A DNA stretch of 22,055 nucleotides from a virus (lineage: Duplodnaviria > Heunggongvirae > Uroviricota > Caudoviricetes): the IMG/VR virus record IMGVR_UViG_2545824644_000014; one strand, given 5' to 3'. The translations under genes were made by a program, and so were the position numbers. How positions within the stretch are numbered: the stretch's first letter is position 1; each line of letters opens with the position of its first letter. The notes below the pieces were generated by a model, which was not told the DNA's origin, searched no databases, and worked only from the letters and a program-made list of their open reading frames with translations. Below are positions 3,350 to 12,483 of the stretch, piece by piece.

Positions 3350-3618
3350 AGCATGCACAAGGTGTATTTATCCGTTTTATTGATTTTCGCGGTGAACTGT
3401 TATTACGCGCATCAGCCATTGACGGAGTTGTTCCATCCGAAAAAAACGCAGCTACTTACGTTTATCTGAACGGTACGCGCCTGACTGTGGAGCTTCCGTA
3501 CCAGACCGTACGAGAAATCATTAGCGAAGCTGAAAAGGCACGTCAGGTTAATGGAGATGAACCCTATATCGAAATTATTTGTATAGATTCAGAAGCTGAA
3601 ATTCAGAAAGCAGATTAA
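3350..3618 (+). CDS. Hypothetical early protein, about 89 aa
   Basis: Start chosen at the first ATG after the upstream stop; the track start at 3280 would overlap the previous gene. Confidence 0.45.
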
Positions 3619-5277: not shown

Positions 5278-5399
5278 GAAACCAGAACATGCACACACAA
5301 AAAAACCGCTTGCCATGCCTCAATCGGTCAGGTTACATTTCCGCTGCACCTCATAAAACGGGTGCCGGGATTCTCAACCCGATACAGAGCAAAGCGCAT

Positions 5400-5420
5400 A
5401 ACCGCGCAAGCGGTTTTTTT
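5400..5420 (+). terminator. Intrinsic terminator inside the early region
   Basis: Hairpin AACCGC-GCAA-GCGGTT with a GNRA-type loop, followed directly by a run of seven T. Confidence 0.45.
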
Positions 5421-5599
5421 GTGCGTACTGTATTGCCACGTCTTTTTCGCGTCAGAATTATGGCGGGGCGTACGGGGCCGACTTCGGTCGGGCCGGATTC
5501 TTTGCTCTCCGGTGTTGAGAACCCTGTACGTCTCGCCACCCCGAGATTCTCAACTCTGGATGGTGAGTTATTTCTATCACCGAGCAAAGAGGCCACACC

Positions 5600-5830
5600 A
5601 TGGCAGACCGCAAACAGCACCGCGCTATCGCGGAGCGTCGTCACATCCAGACTGAAATCAACCACAGACTTTCCCGCGCATCACGCGTCGCGCAAATCAT
5701 GCACATCAATATGCTGCATGAGCGCAGCCACGCACTATCAAACATTTATTCCGCCTCTGTTTTCAGCTATCTGGCGGATGATCTGCACGAGCTTCAACAG
5801 CTCATCCAGCAGCAAAACAAACTCCATTAA
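5600..5830 (+). CDS. Hypothetical protein, 76 aa
   Basis: RBS AAGAGG 7 nt upstream of the ATG. Lies between the repeat-containing region and the replication genes. Confidence 0.45.
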   Translation: MADRKQHRAIAERRHIQTEINHRLSRASRVAQIMHINMLHERSHALSNIYSASVFSYLADDLHELQQLIQQQNKLH

Positions 5831-5902
5831 TTCCTGTTCCGGGCCTTTCCTGCACCTTGCGGCGGGAGGCCTTCGCACATCTGTAACAAGAGGATTGCCG
5901 CA

Positions 5903-6268
5903 ATGATTCTCGCCAACGACTTTCTTGAATACCTGCTCAACACAGAACGTGATCTTGCCGCTCGCGTGCGTGATCGTTATGACATGTACCTGAAATCCCT
6001 GCCTGTACCGCAGCTCGCTGACGGAAAGATTGTTATTGATGGTCGCTACATGATTGACAGCCACGAGGGAAATTACAGGCTTTACCGCATTGAAGGTGGC
6101 ACCCCGTCCGTTATTGGCATTTACCAGCGCCCATCCTCTGCAATCGTCGATGTGATTGCCGACAGCATCCGCATCACACATCGCCATGCCGACACAGAAG
6201 ACACCGTGCTGGAAATTCAGCGGCTGGCTACAGTCTGCCGCGACACCCTGAATGGCATGACGAAGTAA
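5903..6268 (+). CDS. Hypothetical protein, 121 aa, immediately upstream of replication gene A
   Basis: ORF ending 7 nt before the A start, in the position of the small pre-A ORFs of P2. Confidence 0.5.
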   Translation: MILANDFLEYLLNTERDLAARVRDRYDMYLKSLPVPQLADGKIVIDGRYMIDSHEGNYRLYRIEGGTPSVIGIYQRPSSAIVDVIADSIRITHRHADTEDTVLEIQRLATVCRDTLNGMTK

Positions 6269-6274
6269 ATCACT

Positions 6275-9097
6275 ATGACGGCAGAGTACATCAGGGACTG
6301 GCAACAACCGCGCCACGCAGTGGGGCGTGAAGGAACGGGGATCCCCGCTCCTGAATCCGCGCTTTCCTCCTGGCTGGATGCCTACCGGGTAGAGAACGAG
6401 CGCCGCCAGGAAATGGCTGATGCGGCGTTCTCCGCCACGCCGCTGGGCAACCTGATTAATAAAAGCCTGGACGCACAGGAAAAACAGGACAAAACCATCA
6501 CACTGGCAGGAGACGCCAGAAAACAGGCACGCGGCGCGGTGGATGAAGCCATGGCCTCGCTGCGCCTGCTGCCGTCCTATCTGCGCGATCCGCTTATTCG
6601 CCACCTCTCCTTCCTGCGCAAAAAACAGGAAGCCGATCGCCGGAAAGGCAAAAAGAGCTGGCAGGCGGAACGCTATGCACACGGAACCCTGCGCAAAATA
6701 TTCGAACGTCTGGATAGCACTGACGGACGCTGGCTGACACCGGGTTATCGCTCCCTTGCCGGACGCGAACACCTGGACGATTTGCTTTACCTGCCGCAGC
6801 TCAACAAACACCAGATACAGACGCTGGCCACCATGACGGCGGCGATGTTCAGCAGCACCTTCGAAAAACTCTGCGATGGCTTTGGCGCGACCGATGGCGA
6901 GCTGACCATGGATGTAACCCTGAAGGCGTATCAGATGCTGGCCCGCATGGCGTTACACCTGCACGCCATGCCTCCACATTATGACGCACTGACAACAGAC
7001 AAAGACCGGAGGAACGAACCGGACACGGAGCTGCTGCCGGGCGCAATCCTTCGCCTGACCTGTGCGGAATGGTGGAAACGCAAACTGTGGCTGTTACGTT
7101 GCGAGTGGAGAGAAGAACAACTCCGCGCCGCCTGTCTGGTTTCCAGAAAAACATCACCCTATCTGAGCCAGGACGCGTTAAGCGAGTTTCGCGCACAGCG
7201 CGAGAAAACACGCGATTTCCTGAAAAGTTTCATGCTGGAAAATGAAGACGGGTTCACGATTGATCTCGAGACAGTGTATTACGCGGGAGTAAGTAACCCG
7301 GTTCACCGTAAGGCAGAAATGATGGCCACCATGAAGGGACTGGAACTTCTGGCCGAAGCCCGTGGCGACAAAGCGGTGTTTCTGACTGTCACCTGCCCGT
7401 CAAAATACCACGCCACAACGGAGAACGGTCATCCGAATCCCAAATGGAACGGGGCCACAATGCGCGACTCCAGCGATTACCTGGTTAACACGTTTTTTGC
7501 GGCGGTCCGCAAAAAACTGAACCGCGACGGCCTGCGCTGGTATGGCATCCGCACGGTGGAGCCTCATCATGACGGCACCGTGCACTGGCATATGATGGTC
7601 TTTGCACATCCGGAAGAAATCGACACCATTGTGTCCCATACCCGCGATATTGCCATTCAGGAAGACCGCCACGAGCTGGGCGATGACATAACTCCGCGTT
7701 TTAAGGCGGAGTACGTCGACGGCTCAAAAGGCACGCCAACCAGCTACATCGCCACCTACATCGGAAAGAACCTGGACAGCCGCGCCGTGGATGGCATCGA
7801 CCCGAAAACGGGCAAGCCACGCGTGGACCACGAAACCGGAAAATCAATGGCCGAGAGCGTGGAGCGCGCCATCGGCTGGGCGCGCCTTCACCGGGTCCGT
7901 CAGTTCCAGTTCTTTGGCATCCCCTCCCGTCAGGTATGGCGTGAACTGCGCCGCCTTGCCAGCCAGATGGCACGCAATCCGGAAGGCCCGCAACGGCTGA
8001 AAGATGATGCAATGGATGCGGTACTCGCTGCCGCCGATGCCGGGTGTTTTGCCACCTACATTAAAAAACAGGGTGGCGTGCTTGTTCCACGCAAGGACTA
8101 CCTGATTCGCACCGCCTACGACCTCGCAGATGAGCTGAACGATTACGGCGAACAGAGCGTACAGATTTACGGGATCTGGTCACCACTCATCGGGGAATCC
8201 TCCCGTGTGTGCACGCATCCGGATAACTGGAAGCTGGTAAGACGTAAACCGGAAGCGGAAGACAGCGCCCGCGAAAATGGTTTTGACCTTCAGGGCGGCC
8301 CTGCCGCCCCTTGGACTCGTGGCAATAACTGTCCCCGTGTACAGGAAACGGACAACAACGGGACAGAACAGCCGGAAGAACGGCCAGCACCGTGGCCGCA
8401 GCTCCCTGACGGCGTTGAAGTGAACGAATGGATGCGCTCACTGAAACGGCACGAACGCCGGGCGCTGATGCGTTCGCTTCGTGACAAACAGGCAAAAAAC
8501 AGCAGTGATGAAATGCAGAGCTGGACACAGAGCCGCAAACAGCAGCGGCCTTTGCCTGATAACCACGAATTACTCGCTAAAGAATGGCGGGAGTCTGCTG
8601 AATCTCTCGGCCTGCATATCGGTGAACAACAGATGCAGTACCTGTTACGGGGCGGCAGTCTGTACGTTGACGGCAGCATCATTGCACCGCAGGGATTTGA
8701 AATTGTACGCAAACCGGATACCCGCCCGGACAGCCGAATCACGCAGCTCTGGCAGCGCCTGAGCCGTAATCATGGCGTAAGCAGCACAGAGATCCGCCAT
8801 AACCCGGTCGCCAGCTATCTGGAACAACTGGGGGCATCAGACCCCGAAGCCGCCGCACGTCTGGCATCCACACTTCAGCAGGACCAGAACACCATGAAAA
8901 CACCCGTTACCGTGCTTTCTGACATGCTGCGCGCCATCCGCGACGCAGAGCACGCACAGAGAATCAGTGAAACCACTGAACGCGCCCACCGCAAAGCAGA
9001 CCTGCTGCGGGGTAGCCTGACCAGTGGAAACAAAAAACAGACAGAAACGGGACTCACGAATCCCGTAAATGAGCAAAAAACGCTCAGCGATATATGA
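6275..9097 (+). CDS. A: Phage replication initiation endonuclease (P2 gpA-like rolling-circle Rep), 940 aa
   Basis: HUH-type metal motif VHWHMMVF (codons near 7566-7589). Paired catalytic tyrosines in SYIATYIGK (TAC codons at 7745-7747 and 7757-7759), as in the Y-x3-Y motif of phiX174/P2 A-type initiators. Position is between early genes and the variable locus. Confidence 0.9.
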   Translation: MTAEYIRDWQQPRHAVGREGTGIPAPESALSSWLDAYRVENERRQEMADAAFSATPLGNLINKSLDAQEKQDKTITLAGDARKQARGAVDEAMASLRLLPSYLRDPLIRHLSFLRKKQEADRRKGKKSWQAERYAHGTLRKIFERLDSTDGRWLTPGYRSLAGREHLDDLLYLPQLNKHQIQTLATMTAAMFSSTFEKLCDGFGATDGELTMDVTLKAYQMLARMALHLHAMPPHYDALTTDKDRRNEPDTELLPGAILRLTCAEWWKRKLWLLRCEWREEQLRAACLVSRKTSPYLSQDALSEFRAQREKTRDFLKSFMLENEDGFTIDLETVYYAGVSNPVHRKAEMMATMKGLELLAEARGDKAVFLTVTCPSKYHATTENGHPNPKWNGATMRDSSDYLVNTFFAAVRKKLNRDGLRWYGIRTVEPHHDGTVHWHMMVFAHPEEIDTIVSHTRDIAIQEDRHELGDDITPRFKAEYVDGSKGTPTSYIATYIGKNLDSRAVDGIDPKTGKPRVDHETGKSMAESVERAIGWARLHRVRQFQFFGIPSRQVWRELRRLASQMARNPEGPQRLKDDAMDAVLAAADAGCFATYIKKQGGVLVPRKDYLIRTAYDLADELNDYGEQSVQIYGIWSPLIGESSRVCTHPDNWKLVRRKPEAEDSARENGFDLQGGPAAPWTRGNNCPRVQETDNNGTEQPEERPAPWPQLPDGVEVNEWMRSLKRHERRALMRSLRDKQAKNSSDEMQSWTQSRKQQRPLPDNHELLAKEWRESAESLGLHIGEQQMQYLLRGGSLYVDGSIIAPQGFEIVRKPDTRPDSRITQLWQRLSRNHGVSSTEIRHNPVASYLEQLGASDPEAAARLASTLQQDQNTMKTPVTVLSDMLRAIRDAEHAQRISETTERAHRKADLLRGSLTSGNKKQTETGLTNPVNEQKTLSDI

Positions 9098-9142
9098 AGC
9101 GCGCACAAAACAGGCAAAAACGGGATTTCAGAATCCCGTAAA
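9034..9142. repeat. Two roughly 36-bp direct repeats, each with a palindrome ACGGGA..TCCCGT; candidate parC-like centromere/operator
   Basis: Repeat 1 at 9034-9069 (palindrome 9047-9066) and repeat 2 at 9107-9142 (arms ACGGGATT/AATCCCGT at 9120-9139). Repeat 1 lies inside the 3' end of A, repeat 2 just upstream of the parM-like gene. Confidence 0.4.
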
Positions 9143-9173
9143 CGATTAATTAATCAACATAAGGAAAAGCGAC

Positions 9174-10133
9174 ATGAAAATTTGTATCGACGACGGCTCC
9201 ACCAACATCAAGCTGGCATGGACTGAGAACGGCGAACGCCGCAACGCCATCAGCCCGAACAGCTTCAAGTCTGAATGGTCTGCGCCGTTCGGTGGCACGC
9301 AGCCCGCGAACTACATGCTTGATGGCGTGCGCTATGGTTTTGATCCGGTCAGCGATCGCTTTGTCCAGACGACCGACACGCAATACCAGTACAGCGATGT
9401 GAATGTCATTGCCATTCATCACGCGCTGGTCAAATCAGGCATCACGCCACAGGAGGTGGATGTGGTTGTCACCCTGCCACTGAGCGAGTATTTCGACACA
9501 AACGCACAGCCGGACATGGCCAACATCAACCGCAAAAAAGCGAACGTTATGCGCCCGGTGGAGTACCAGAACGGCGAAGCATTCACTATCCGTAACGTGC
9601 GGGTTATGCCTGAATCCATTCCGGCTGGCTTTAAGGCACTGGCTGACATGAGTCCTTTTGAATCCCTGCTGATTGTGGATTTGGGCGGAACCACGCTGGA
9701 TGTGGCAAAGGTTCAGGGGCAACTGGCAGGTATCAGCCAGGTGTTTTGCGATCCACACGTAGGCGTTTCTCTGATGGCCGATGCCGTACTGTCGGTGATG
9801 GCCACTAACGGTATGCGCACCAGTCACCACATCGCCAATACCATTATCGAACATCGCCATGATGAAGCCTGGCTGCGCCAGCACATCCACAATGACGCGC
9901 ATTACGCCAGCCTGATGGCGGTTATTCGTGAAAAGGAAGAAACACTGAAACAACGCGTGATCCGCGCGCTGGCGGTTTTTTCGGGTTACGGGCGGGTGAT
10001 GGTTGTCGGTGGAGGGGCGGAGATTGTGGCACCCGCTATCCGCGAAGCCTGCGGAGTTAATGCGACTTTCATCGCGGACGGGGTGCCACAGTTTGCTCTG
10101 GTTAATGGGCTGTACGCAATGGACAAGGAGTAA
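9174..10133 (+). CDS. parM: Actin-like ATPase of the ParM/StbA family (type II partition NTPase homologue), 319 aa
   Basis: N-terminus MKICIDDGSTNIKLAW closely matches R1 ParM as recalled (MLVFIDDGSTNIKLQW). Other recalled blocks also align: YSDVNV..HHAL, MPESIPAG, DLGGTTLD, GVSL, VGGGAE, LVNG. Confidence 0.85.
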   Translation: MKICIDDGSTNIKLAWTENGERRNAISPNSFKSEWSAPFGGTQPANYMLDGVRYGFDPVSDRFVQTTDTQYQYSDVNVIAIHHALVKSGITPQEVDVVVTLPLSEYFDTNAQPDMANINRKKANVMRPVEYQNGEAFTIRNVRVMPESIPAGFKALADMSPFESLLIVDLGGTTLDVAKVQGQLAGISQVFCDPHVGVSLMADAVLSVMATNGMRTSHHIANTIIEHRHDEAWLRQHIHNDAHYASLMAVIREKEETLKQRVIRALAVFSGYGRVMVVGGGAEIVAPAIREACGVNATFIADGVPQFALVNGLYAMDKE

Positions 10134-10137
10134 ACCA

Positions 10138-10446
10138 ATGACGACACCAACCAGACGGATAAGTTTCTATCTGAAGCCCGCCGCCGTCAAGAACGAAGGC
10201 GAAGCATGCGCCTGGCTGGACAGCCTTACACCAGAAGCCCGCAAAAGCGGCCAACGCGTGGCTTTTCTGGCCGGGCTGGCACTTCTGAAAATGAATCCGG
10301 CAGAGGCTTACCGACTGGCTGCATGGGCTGACGATGAGTTGGCCGTGGTACAAAACAGAGTAGAACAGAACGCGCCACAACCAGTACCAACCACACAGAT
10401 AACCAGCCAGATGGCCGGGAATATCCGGGCGTTATTTCCCGAATAA
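10138..10446 (+). CDS. parR: ParR/StbB-like centromere-binding adaptor, 103 aa
   Basis: Starts 4 nt after the parM stop with RBS AGGAG. N-terminal RRISFYLKP...AFLAGLALL and the C-terminal IRALFPE parallel R1 ParR as recalled (RTIAFKLNP...LTAGLAL...LRSLFPKE). Confidence 0.65.
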   Translation: MTTPTRRISFYLKPAAVKNEGEACAWLDSLTPEARKSGQRVAFLAGLALLKMNPAEAYRLAAWADDELAVVQNRVEQNAPQPVPTTQITSQMAGNIRALFPE

Positions 10447-10448
10447 CA

Positions 10449-10480
10449 CAACATCAGGGCGCATCCGCCCTGATGACTTT
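10449..10480 (+). terminator. Hairpin after parR; weak terminator or operator
   Basis: ATCAGGGCG-CATC-CGCCCTGAT, a 9-bp perfect stem directly after the parR stop. The following T-tract is weak. Confidence 0.3.
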
Positions 10481-10544
10481 AATCCGGGAACATAAACAAG
10501 GGGGACACAATGCAACACATTGACAGAGAAAAAGGAAAAAAAGC

Positions 10545-10952
10545 ATGAACAGAAAACAGAAACAAGAGTTGAAATACTTCTTACGTAAAGAAATTGCCAG
10601 GCTTGAAGATGCAGAGTCACAATCATCAGAAATTCCGTTCGGAATGGATATCAACGACGCCCGTATGCTTCAGGCATACCGTATAGCTCAGGCTGCACTA
10701 CAGACAAAACCGTTAAATAACATACATGAAAAGTATGATTATTTTACGGATACCGCTTGCTTGCTGACATCTGAAGAACAAAAGATAGCCCAACTTTTAG
10801 GCGACGCATGGAACCTGTATTTAACATTGCCAGTTGAGCATCCAATGGGTAGAGATGAATTTTGCCGGGCAATTCATCATTGCCAAAATATGGTGTTGGC
10901 ACGCCCGGCCATCAGGGCGTTGGCCAGGAAGGGGCAAGGCTATAAAAGATAA
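10545..10952 (+). CDS. Orphan hypothetical protein, 135 aa, in the variable locus
   Basis: Own RBS (AAAGGA), AT-rich 5' half, and its own intrinsic terminator. No family recognised. Confidence 0.55.
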   Translation: MNRKQKQELKYFLRKEIARLEDAESQSSEIPFGMDINDARMLQAYRIAQAALQTKPLNNIHEKYDYFTDTACLLTSEEQKIAQLLGDAWNLYLTLPVEHPMGRDEFCRAIHHCQNMVLARPAIRALARKGQGYKR

Positions 10953-10955
10953 GTA

Positions 10956-10983
10956 AAACGCCCTCCTCCAGGGCGTTTATTTC
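10956..10983 (+). terminator. Rho-independent terminator
   Basis: AAACGCCCT-CCTCC-AGGGCGTTT, a 9-bp stem, followed by ATTTC. Confidence 0.6.
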
Positions 10984-10985
10984 AA

Positions 10986-11012
10986 TGCACAATAGTGCAC
11001 AAATTTGCACAA
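10986..11012. repeat. Three direct TGCACAA repeats at 10-bp spacing, followed by a T-tract
   Basis: TGCACAA at 10986-10992, 10996-11002 and 11006-11012. The helical spacing suggests a protein-binding array. Confidence 0.4.
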
Positions 11013-11436
11013 TTTTTTTGAACGACTTTTTGCCCTTCCGGCCCGCGTGGCGGCTGGATCCGTCAGGGAACCGTGCGTGCACAAAAAAACGCGCTTTTTC
11101 TGCGCACAGGTGACGGGGGAACAGCCCGCGTTTCAGGGGGTAAATAGCATCCCCTGAACGATGTCGCAGCGACACAACAGAATGGCTGTATTTCTCACGC
11201 TGAGCGTGAAAAAGACGTGAGGGCTTTTGATTTGATGGGGTGGCAGATAAGGCCGTCAAAATCGCACTGAGGCGGCGAGAACATGCAGTCAGCGCGATGG
11301 GATTGCGTAAGAGCCTGACCGTCGATGATGGCAATAAGCTGGAAGGCGTCGTGAAATTATCTGATTGATACAGGAGCTGGAGAGTCGGGGCATAAATTTT
11401 TTATGCCCCGGCGAAGCAGCAGACAAGCGAAGCGCG

Positions 11437-12483
11437 TCAGGATGTGGGCTGGGTGTCTAACAGTGCGTAAGGGTTAAAGCGGATCACCTCTTCGCCAAGC
11501 CAGTCATTGATGTGCTTCATGGCCTCCATGACGGGCATCAGCTCGTTAATTGCGTAAACCCGCGCGGCCTTCTCCACATCACCAAACGCACTTTTTTCGC
11601 CCGGCATCGCCCCCATCAGTTGCGGCGGAACGCGGTGCGCAGCCAGCACATCATCACGGGATGCCGCCTTAACATTCATGAACTCATCTTTTGCGGTGAT
11701 CTGCTGGAACGGCAAAATTTGCACCCCCTCTTTGCCCCCGTTGGGCGCATGAATGAGCACGTTTTTAAACGCACCACCACCACGTGCCCCCTGTAGCGTT
11801 TCTTTCAGGGAGTCCATGCTTTCGCGGTTTACCTGCGCTGCACCGATGTAGATGATGCACCCGGCGTGGGATCCGTTGTCGTAGTACAGTTTTCTGAACA
11901 TGTCCGCCGAATGAGAAAGGCTGGCCGAGAGTAATGCGCCAAGATATTCCGGCATGCCGTAGATTTCCTGGTTAATATCCGGATTCATCAGGTGGCACAC
12001 TTTGCCAGGGCGAAACTGGAACGCGTCCTTGCCATCCTGCACATACCACCATGATTCAAGATCGCTTCCGCGTCGCATGTATTTCGCCAGGGCGTGCCGT
12101 AATTTAAGCGGTTCGCCGAGCATATTGCTTCGAAGCTCAAGGAATGCGTTACCGAACACAAACCAGTCCAGCGCCAGCGCCGAGAAATCCTGCCGGGAAA
12201 GCAGCGGGTGCGGGATGTAGCAACCGAGTAATACATTGCGCTTAAAGTAAAGCGCAGACTGATGCCAGGACGTTTGCCGGGCAGCTCTTGCCAGGCCGTA
12301 CCAGTCCACCGGGGTTTCATACCACCGCCCGTTATCAGCACAGTACATATTATCCAGCAGGTCATGCCCGGTCAGGCGATAAGGCCCATCAAATGTGAAT
12401 GCACTGAGCGACGATTCTTTCCTCAGCGCATCAGCGAGATCAATGCGTGAACTCATGCGCACTTTTTTATTTTTTCTGCTCAT
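11437..12483 (-). CDS. Q: Portal protein (P2 gpQ-like), 348 aa
   Basis: Size, orientation and position right after the non-coding cos-containing region, with its start overlapping the stop of the terminase ATPase gene. Confidence 0.85.
   Translation of the reverse strand: MSRKNKKVRMSSRIDLADALRKESSLSAFTFDGPYRLTGHDLLDNMYCADNGRWYETPVDWYGLARAARQTSWHQSALYFKRNVLLGCYIPHPLLSRQDFSALALDWFVFGNAFLELRSNMLGEPLKLRHALAKYMRRGSDLESWWYVQDGKDAFQFRPGKVCHLMNPDINQEIYGMPEYLGALLSASLSHSADMFRKLYYDNGSHAGCIIYIGAAQVNRESMDSLKETLQGARGGGAFKNVLIHAPNGGKEGVQILPFQQITAKDEFMNVKAASRDDVLAAHRVPPQLMGAMPGEKSAFGDVEKAARVYAINELMPVMEAMKHINDWLGEEVIRFNPYALLDTQPTS

Follow-up and report, generated by a model that had tools for sequence, protein, structure and literature searches.

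Why does an integrating phage carry a pair of palindromic repeats that begins within the coding end of its replication gene and ends just ahead of a plasmid-type segregation gene, and with which of these two genes do the repeats belong? This question is raised by a 22,055-nucleotide stretch of viral DNA (IMG/VR record IMGVR_UViG_2545824644_000014), here called the window, to whose positions all coordinates refer unless another locus is named. The window was identified as a P88-type prophage of the P2 family (Xuanwuvirus, Peduoviridae), and its segment 8700-10600 matched 14 phage records at 95-99% identity, Escherichia phage P88 among them. On the plus strand, the replication gene A is followed by parM, parR, and an open reading frame (ORF) for a 135-aa cargo protein, after which the portal and terminase genes lie on the minus strand. 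An initial annotation, made from the DNA letters alone, had regarded the repeats as a parC-like centromere or operator for a ParR-like protein. From sequence comparison, we conclude with a probability of about three in four that the repeat pair is the parC-like centromere site of a type II ParMRC cassette in this P88-like, P2-family prophage.

The repeat pair and its inheritance

A repeat search of the window returned a single family of direct repeats, with two 42-nt copies at 9031-9072 and 9104-9145 that are 81% identical and have a start-to-start spacing of 73. In the 36-nt cores of these copies (9034-9069 and 9107-9142), 30 of 36 positions match, which confirmed the two repeats of about 36 bp, 73 bp apart, of the initial annotation. 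The ACGGGA/TCCCGT inverted repeat that had been described for them was recovered as a 20-nt near-palindrome in both copies, with the form ACGGGAyT-N4-AATCCCGT. Palindrome 1 (ACGGGACTCACGAATCCCGT, 9047-9066) has a GGG-N10-CCC core, palindrome 2 (ACGGGATTTCAGAATCCCGT, 9120-9139) has 8-bp arms around a 4-nt centre, and both are candidate ParR sites. The pair was the only one in the 22-kb window with at least 26 of 36 matches at offsets of 36-150, and the best pairs in 100 first-order Markov shuffles reached 21-26 matches as compared to the 30 observed. A search with the degenerate palindrome pattern, allowing up to three mismatches, likewise found these two sites alone in the window (0.23 expected).

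Gene A (6275-9097, plus strand) encodes a P2-type replication endonuclease of 940 aa (Pfam Phage_GPA, E 2e-131; 30% identity with P2 gpA over residues 77-800), and its 3' end extends into the cassette. Repeat 1 lies within the last codons of this gene (KKQTETGLTNPVNE), just as had been proposed, and the last 21 codons of A are translated repeat 1 plus part of the spacer. The spacer between the repeats (9073-9103) contains the last codons and the stop codon of A (9095-9097) and is variable in sequence but constant in length, and repeat 2 is positioned in the intergenic region between A and parM. The block AAAAAACAGACAGAAACGGGA of repeat 1 was invariant in an alignment of 12 sequences and showed only rare one-base changes among 60 distinct upstream sequences. 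Substitutions cluster in the central 4-6 bases of each palindrome, which fits a spacer between half-sites, where variation is expected.

Do the repeats travel with parMR or with gene A? We pooled 111 P88-like loci from phage, genome, and IMG/VR collections, and in 105 of them the palindromes are at positions -125 and -52 relative to the parM ATG. The 156-bp region with the repeats occurs in 1304 of 5426 complete E. coli genomes, about a quarter, including the O157:H7, ST131, and UTI89 lineages, and in every one of the records listed it is flanked by genes annotated as "replication endonuclease" and "ParM". A query reaching from the 3' end of A to the start of parM matched 1373 genomes, 1288 of them at a query coverage of at least 80%, and three of the partial matches, all from E. 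coli prophages (L154, L155, and L156), were fetched. In these three prophages, gene A is 95-97% identical to that of the window as far as about 8981-8997. Their cargo is a Dam methylase with an AAA ATPase, an AAA ATPase with an S8 peptidase, or three minus-strand hypothetical genes, and all three lack parMR as well as both repeats. Phages without the partition module had been suggested as the place to look for repeats of another function, and these three, which have the same gene A, carry none. The left junction of the parMR cassette can thus be placed approximately at 8990-9020, where homology to the parMR-less sister prophages stops or fades.

A first IMG/VR scan gave only copies of 99-100% identity. 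A scan of this collection for the pattern CGGGATT-N4-AATCCCG alone returned 80 loci. In 54 of them, the palindrome was found at a constant distance from parM, barring one outlier, namely at 53 nt for palindrome 2 and at about 126 nt in loci where palindrome 1 alone fitted the pattern. Three loci were ends of P88-like contigs truncated at the repeats, the other 23 were unrelated single matches of the kind expected by chance, and none of the 80 had the repeat pair without parM. In some loci, other ORFs are situated between A and parM, and there the repeats remain beside parM. One such IMG/VR locus (L122) has an extra 145-aa ORF that reads the hairpin of palindrome 1 in another frame, and it retains this hairpin, the spacer, and repeat 2 despite the different upstream ORF. 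Protein coding therefore cannot account for the conservation of hairpin 1. By all of these comparisons, inheritance of the repeats follows parMR and not gene A.

Partition proteins and the site in distant relatives

The two genes downstream of the repeats had been taken for a ParM and a ParR-like gene, and this identification proved right. The parM gene (9174-10133, plus strand) encodes an actin-like segregation ATPase of 319 aa (Pfam StbA_N, E 1.8e-82; ParM C-terminal domain, E 6.3e-69) that matches the R1 ParM structure 1MWK over residues 2-316 (E 8.3e-93). The parR ORF (10138-10446, plus strand, 102 aa) begins 5 nt past the parM stop codon, and its product is by family a centromere-binding adaptor (Pfam PF10784, Plasmid_stab_B, E 1.4e-23; PHROG 2515, "partition protein", E 4.5e-55). 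In the alignment of ParR proteins, the N-terminal 65 residues are conserved, the linker is variable, and the C-terminal NIRALFPE tail is again conserved. This pattern fits the published ParR domain plan, in which an N-terminal ribbon-helix-helix DNA-binding domain is combined with a C-terminal ParM-binding tail (PMC5016525). In the form N-I-(R/Q)-x-(L/F)-F-P, the tail is kept in divergent alleles and in the Hafnia, Plesiomonas, Serratia, and IncL/M homologues, and by this conservation it is a candidate ParM-binding tail with a predicted ParM interaction. From family membership and the strand-like motif RRISFYLKP alone, we infer a ribbon-helix-helix fold for the N-terminal domain. The locus thus combines the features by which type II partition systems are recognised: a ParM ATPase, an adjacent ParR with a conserved tail, and a repeated cis site upstream that is inherited with the cassette.

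A search of genome contigs with ParM gave three near-identical loci, and more distant relatives were obtained via protein searches and contig look-ups. In P2-like prophages of other genera, parM-parR is found at the equivalent position. A Hafnia locus (L007, ParM 62% identical) has GGG...CCC elements at its positions 3373-3388 and 3446-3461, 73 bp apart, and both are spanned by a 167-aa ORF between A and parM. A Plesiomonas locus (L010, ParM likewise 62% identical) has two 26-nt repeats GCGGGACAACA..ACCC with a distance of 72 bp, and a second Hafnia-type contig (L159, ParR 75% identical) has the perfect palindromes GGGATTCATGAATCCC and GGGATTTGAAAATCCC, again 73 bp apart. In all three, the GGG-N10-CCC pairs lie at about the same distance from parM, the inner sequences and the overlapping ORFs differ, and the ParR proteins have the N-terminal motif (T)RR(I/V)SFYL in common. 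An alignment of five lineages showed invariant GGGA, CCC, and ATTAAT with variable centres. Judged from these alignments, the two-site architecture is retained in distant relatives.

A different arrangement was found in Serratia/Enterobacter-type P2-like prophages, whose ParR starts with NRKISFYL and resembles the ParR of IncL/M plasmids. Their site is a 20-32-nt inverted repeat GGGAACGATATAGAAAAATGA, which contains ATAGAAAAAT and has an inner part that resembles the IncL/M iterons TTTTTCTRTA. As loci with the NRKISFYL-type ParR carry this other inverted repeat, the cis-site design appears to change with the ParR type. In the loci of this type (L011, L012, L015, L124, L125, and L127), the inverted repeat, a putative centromere of another kind, lies about 60-120 nt upstream of parM, has a centre of 2-28 nt, and is followed by a palindrome AAAGCGAC(N)TTTAAACGGCTTTTT.

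Other functions considered for the repeats

As the palindromes can fold into hairpins, it was in principle possible that they act at the RNA level in an A-parM transcript, as stabilisers, as processing sites, or in translational coupling, rather than as protein-binding DNA. They are located between two co-oriented genes, and no plus-strand terminator was found between A and parM. The plus-strand hairpins have predicted stabilities of -9.0 and -10.7 kcal/mol with z-scores of -3.35 and -4.02, and none of 200 shuffled sequences was as stable. Nevertheless, we consider an RNA function very improbable. In-register variants among the 111 loci were one-sided only, with no compensatory double changes, although the low divergence limits the power of this comparison, and an uncompensated C.A mismatch is present in stem 1 in 53 of the 111 loci. 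Nothing but GGG and CCC is retained in the Plesiomonas site, where the 10 nt between them are not complementary, and a permissive Rfam scan of 8000-11500 gave no match. What is conserved is sequence and spacing and not pairing, as expected of a protein-binding site.

The same hairpins resemble terminators when read on the minus strand, where each consists of a stem of 8 bp with a loop of 4 nt and is followed by a T-rich tail, and where the RNA hairpins reach -10.2 and -12.7 kcal/mol. They could accordingly be tandem intrinsic minus-strand terminators that keep antisense transcription arriving from the cargo region out of gene A and the early operon. We regard this as very improbable, as no minus-strand gene ends at the repeats, parM and parR both being plus-strand genes, and as other terminator-like hairpins are already present at 10452-10475 and 10956-10978. 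The minus-strand z-scores are weak (-2.2 and -1.9). In the Hafnia and Plesiomonas loci, the A-tracts are on the opposite side of the hairpin or the stem is reduced to 3-4 bp, so that a terminator is no longer present, whereas the GGG-N10-CCC pair and the spacing of 72-73 bp persist, and the Serratia type keeps AAAAACGGGAAC without a local hairpin. Moreover, the parMR-less prophage L156, which has minus-strand cargo directly 3' of the same gene A, does not have these hairpins. As an intrinsic terminator, the element was rejected, since hairpin and T-tail occur together on the minus strand only and since the Hafnia and Plesiomonas loci do not keep this tail.

A role in replication would have the repeats serve as an origin-associated element, a site for protein A, a lagging-strand priming signal, or a site for another DNA-binding protein of phage or host. 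Repeat 1 is within gene A, and so is the P2 origin, whose nick site (GCGCC/TCGGAGTCCTGTCAATAAC) is annotated at codon 619 of 761 (NC_001895). However, the homologue of this nick site (GCCGCCCCTTGGACTCGTGGCAATAACTG, compared to GCCGCGCCTCGGAGTCCTGTCAATAACTG in P2) is found on the plus strand at about 8296-8335, outside the repeat element and some 700 bp upstream of the repeats, and no other stretch of gene A varies as little (pi 0.006 in 12 P88-like loci). As the repeats are missing from the parMR-less sister prophages, which share this gene A, and as the repeats stay beside parM where other ORFs part A from parM, we give hardly any credence to a replication function. The repeats were rejected as a P2-type origin because the nick-site homologue is not at the repeats.

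The length of protein A had been linked to the cassette as well, as its low-complexity C-terminal part seemed to be an accretion at the cargo junction. With 940 aa as compared to 761 aa of P2 gpA, the A protein is indeed longer, but the accretion did not hold up except for about the last 27 codons. The alignment with P2 gpA extends up to residue 800, and the A proteins of the parMR-less sisters have 915-941 aa and all contain the motif ERAxRKAxLL. Only the tail SLTSGNKKQTETGLTNPVNEQKTLSDI (about 9014-9094) is cassette-derived.

Several observations speak against the assignment of the repeat pair as a centromere. Among complete E. coli genomes, 1441 of 1443 copies are chromosomal, and the need for a centromere is therefore not obvious. 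The diversity profile of the P88 clade shows that the repeat region overall is no more conserved than neighbouring coding DNA. The phasing of AAAC A-tracts (R = 0.77 at 10.4 bp) was matched by 22 of 540 shuffles and is, as a post hoc result, only weakly significant. Tandem 10-11-bp direct iterons as in R1 parC are not the design of this site, which consists of two 20-bp palindromes in 36-42-nt repeats. On the protein side, an AlphaFold2 monomer of ParR had a predicted local distance difference test (pLDDT) score of 55 and built the N-terminal strand as a helix, and a PDB sequence search with ParR gave no real match. Furthermore, at least three ParR alleles with only 53-58% overall identity occur with the same repeats in the P88 clade (L001, L003, L021-L025). 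A literature search found no paper that describes a P2-like or P88 ParMRC module or its site. Finally, a consensus scan of 8800-9200 detected no sigma-70-like promoter in or between the repeats, and thus no counterpart of the autoregulated promoter of R1 parC was recognised. Of the original centromere/operator assignment, the centromere part is thus favoured by sequence comparison, as the repeats track parMR, whereas the operator part is not.

Two of these objections can be qualified. Since known parC sites vary widely in design and may be split in two blocks (PMC5016525), the lack of R1-style iterons does not bar membership in the wider class. With respect to the ParR alleles, nucleotide diversity climbs to 0.2-0.5 past the junction of parM and parR (about 10114), while parM and the repeats are more than 95% identical. 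Common to the alleles are almost all of residues 1-18 (TPTRRISFYLKPA), the QRxAFLAGLAL helix, and the NI(R/Q)xLFPE tail, and their variability is located in the linker and helix region. The divergence of the alleles is compatible with shared repeats only because residues 1-18 are nearly the same in all of them and a number of positions further on in the N-terminal domain do not vary.

Proposed mechanism, known systems, and neighbouring features

If the repeat pair is a centromere, ParR dimers would recognise the GGG-N10-CCC palindrome of each repeat via their N-terminal ribbon-helix-helix region. The distance of 73 bp corresponds to about seven helical turns, and the two sites would thus be on the same face of the DNA and could, together with the phased A-tracts between them, assemble a single ParR-DNA complex. 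The conserved C-terminal tails (NIRALFPE) of ParR would then capture ParM filaments, and these would force the circular phage genomes away from each other. ParR binding, the arrangement of the complex, autoregulation or promoter control, and a benefit to the phage are all predictions from the sequence at this point. ParM and ParR are probably made with the early operon at a time when the genome is episomal. The parMR genes come last in the block of early genes that is read rightward, at its distal end and immediately 3' of gene A, and the best candidate for an early promoter is at 2465-2493, adjoining a divergent helix-turn-helix (HTH) gene. Because of this distal position and the missing plus-strand terminator after A, the probable target of the system is the episomal genome, as present after infection or excision, and not the integrated prophage.

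A more far-reaching proposal, which we put forward only tentatively and with more doubt than confidence, is that an integrating P2-family phage uses a plasmid-type ParMRC system on its own episomal circular genome, with the cassette expressed together with the early operon. The centromere would then represent a new design with two palindromes (GGG-N10-CCC twice, 72-73 bp apart, from Escherichia to Plesiomonas) that has become fused to the stop-codon region of any gene that happens to be upstream. If this is true, P88-like phages would be transiently partitioned "phage-plasmids", and sister prophages with and without parMR should differ in lysogenisation efficiency or in the segregation of replicating genomes. 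The centromere assignment itself is what a specialist would expect, and the element is ordinary in kind, with only its host being unusual. The two-palindrome design with its constant spacing, its overlap with the upstream ORF, whatever that may be, and the frequency of the cassette in integrated prophages are modest surprises. The assignment provides a concrete and testable cis site for a cassette that is publicly annotated merely as "ParM" and "partition protein". The sister prophages that share the replication gene and differ in parMR, together with a variant that has lost one repeat, form a ready genetic system for the question of why an integrating phage keeps a segregation machine. The location of a cargo junction inside the A reading frame is also relevant to the annotation and engineering of these prophages.

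The closest plasmid counterpart is the parMRC (stbAB) locus of R1/NR1, which has the same order of cis site, parM, and parR. The ParM of an R1-type plasmid locus is 46.5% identical to that of the window, and the two ParR proteins belong to the same Pfam family. In R1 and pSK41, parC is directly upstream of parM, as is the site described here. R1 parC and the window site are both rich in A-tracts, consist of two blocks, and have the same ribosome-binding motif CATAAGGA before parM, with which the A-tract-plus-C iteron array of an R1-type parC (L016) also ends. In the window, the Shine-Dalgarno sequence AAGGA of parM is at 9161-9165 (plus strand), and the motif is common to R1-type parM genes. 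However, R1 parC is made of 2 x 5 direct 11-bp iterons that flank a known promoter (PMC5016525), whereas the window has a pair of 20-bp palindromes at a distance of 73 bp, with no promoter that could be recognised. In addition, its first site is within the last codons of the gene before it, and the carrier is an integrating phage and not a plasmid.

ParM-type cassettes in elements that normally reside in the chromosome have a precedent in srpMRC of the SXT/R391 integrative and conjugative elements (ICEs), which is thought to act on the excised circle (PMC4489591, Carraro et al., 2015). That system differs in that SrpR has no recognisable similarity to ParR, as opposed to the PF10784-type ParR of the window, in being carried by an ICE and not by a phage, and in its unrelated repeat sequence and spacing. 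The AlpAC/alpS system of the Corynebacterium glutamicum prophage CGP3 comprises a prophage-encoded actin-like protein, a DNA-binding adaptor, and specific DNA sites, which are proposed to move viral DNA and to help replicate it (PMC5539076). AlpAC belongs to a distant actin-like family and to another phage type and host phylum, while ParM and ParR of the window are close to the enterobacterial plasmid type. The P1-like phage-plasmid D6 has a phage-borne ParM (StbA, 48% identity), a StbB-type ParR, and repeated sites upstream. Unlike the P88-like prophages, D6 is maintained as a plasmid, and its sites, as read by eye, are clustered CTCA-type repeats at intervals of about 11 bp with no GGG-N10-CCC palindromes.

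Between repeat 2 and the Shine-Dalgarno sequence lies the AT-rich palindrome ATTAATTAAT, which had been placed at about 9145-9154 and was found at exactly these positions. Its core ATTAAT is invariant across the five lineages, and it is possibly a -10-like element or an AU-rich translation enhancer. At this position in about eight related loci, some prophages have the symmetric variant GTTAATTAAC, in which both ends are altered and the symmetry is retained, and a few have the one-sided form GTTAATTAAT. Another terminator-like hairpin with a T-run (AACCGCGCAAGCGGTT TTTTTGTG) is present in the early gene block at 5400-5415 on the plus strand, within an ORF at 5289-5906.

The slot 3' of parR, or 3' of gene A where parMR is missing, holds variable cargo and resembles a P2-type cargo or defence hotspot. 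In the window, this slot (10545-10952) contains the 135-aa cargo ORF, the C-terminal half of which matches PHROG 13916, labelled "DNA ligase". A PADLOC analysis of ParM, ParR, and the 135-aa cargo protein gave no defence-system match. In other loci (L011, L012, L014, L015, L006, and L154-L156), the slot contains HicAB, a KAP NTPase, DUF3800, or HTH and PIN proteins, and further cargo consists of a Dam methylase with an AAA ATPase or of an AAA ATPase with an S8 peptidase.

A few individual loci are of interest in themselves. One IMG/VR locus (L041) has a clean 73-bp deletion that leaves a hybrid repeat, composed of the left part of repeat 1 and the right part of repeat 2, presumably due to recombination between the repeats. 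In a degraded prophage of E. coli EC7518 (L006, NZ_CP085183.1), a DUF4761 early gene runs directly into the parM leader at a point just past repeat 2, so that gene A and both repeats are gone and parMR is retained. Plasmid records hold two of the 1443 E. coli copies. A complete P88-like genome of 34.5 kb with integrase, cox, and parMR (L157, NZ_CP148288.1) was deposited as a circular E. coli "plasmid" and may be an excised or replicating form. Finally, a 226-kb contig of the Gram-positive assembly "Vagococcus sp. WN89Y" (L004, NZ_JBQPOM010000071.1) contains an E. coli-type prophage region with a 98% identical ParM, which looks like contamination or a mislabelled assembly.

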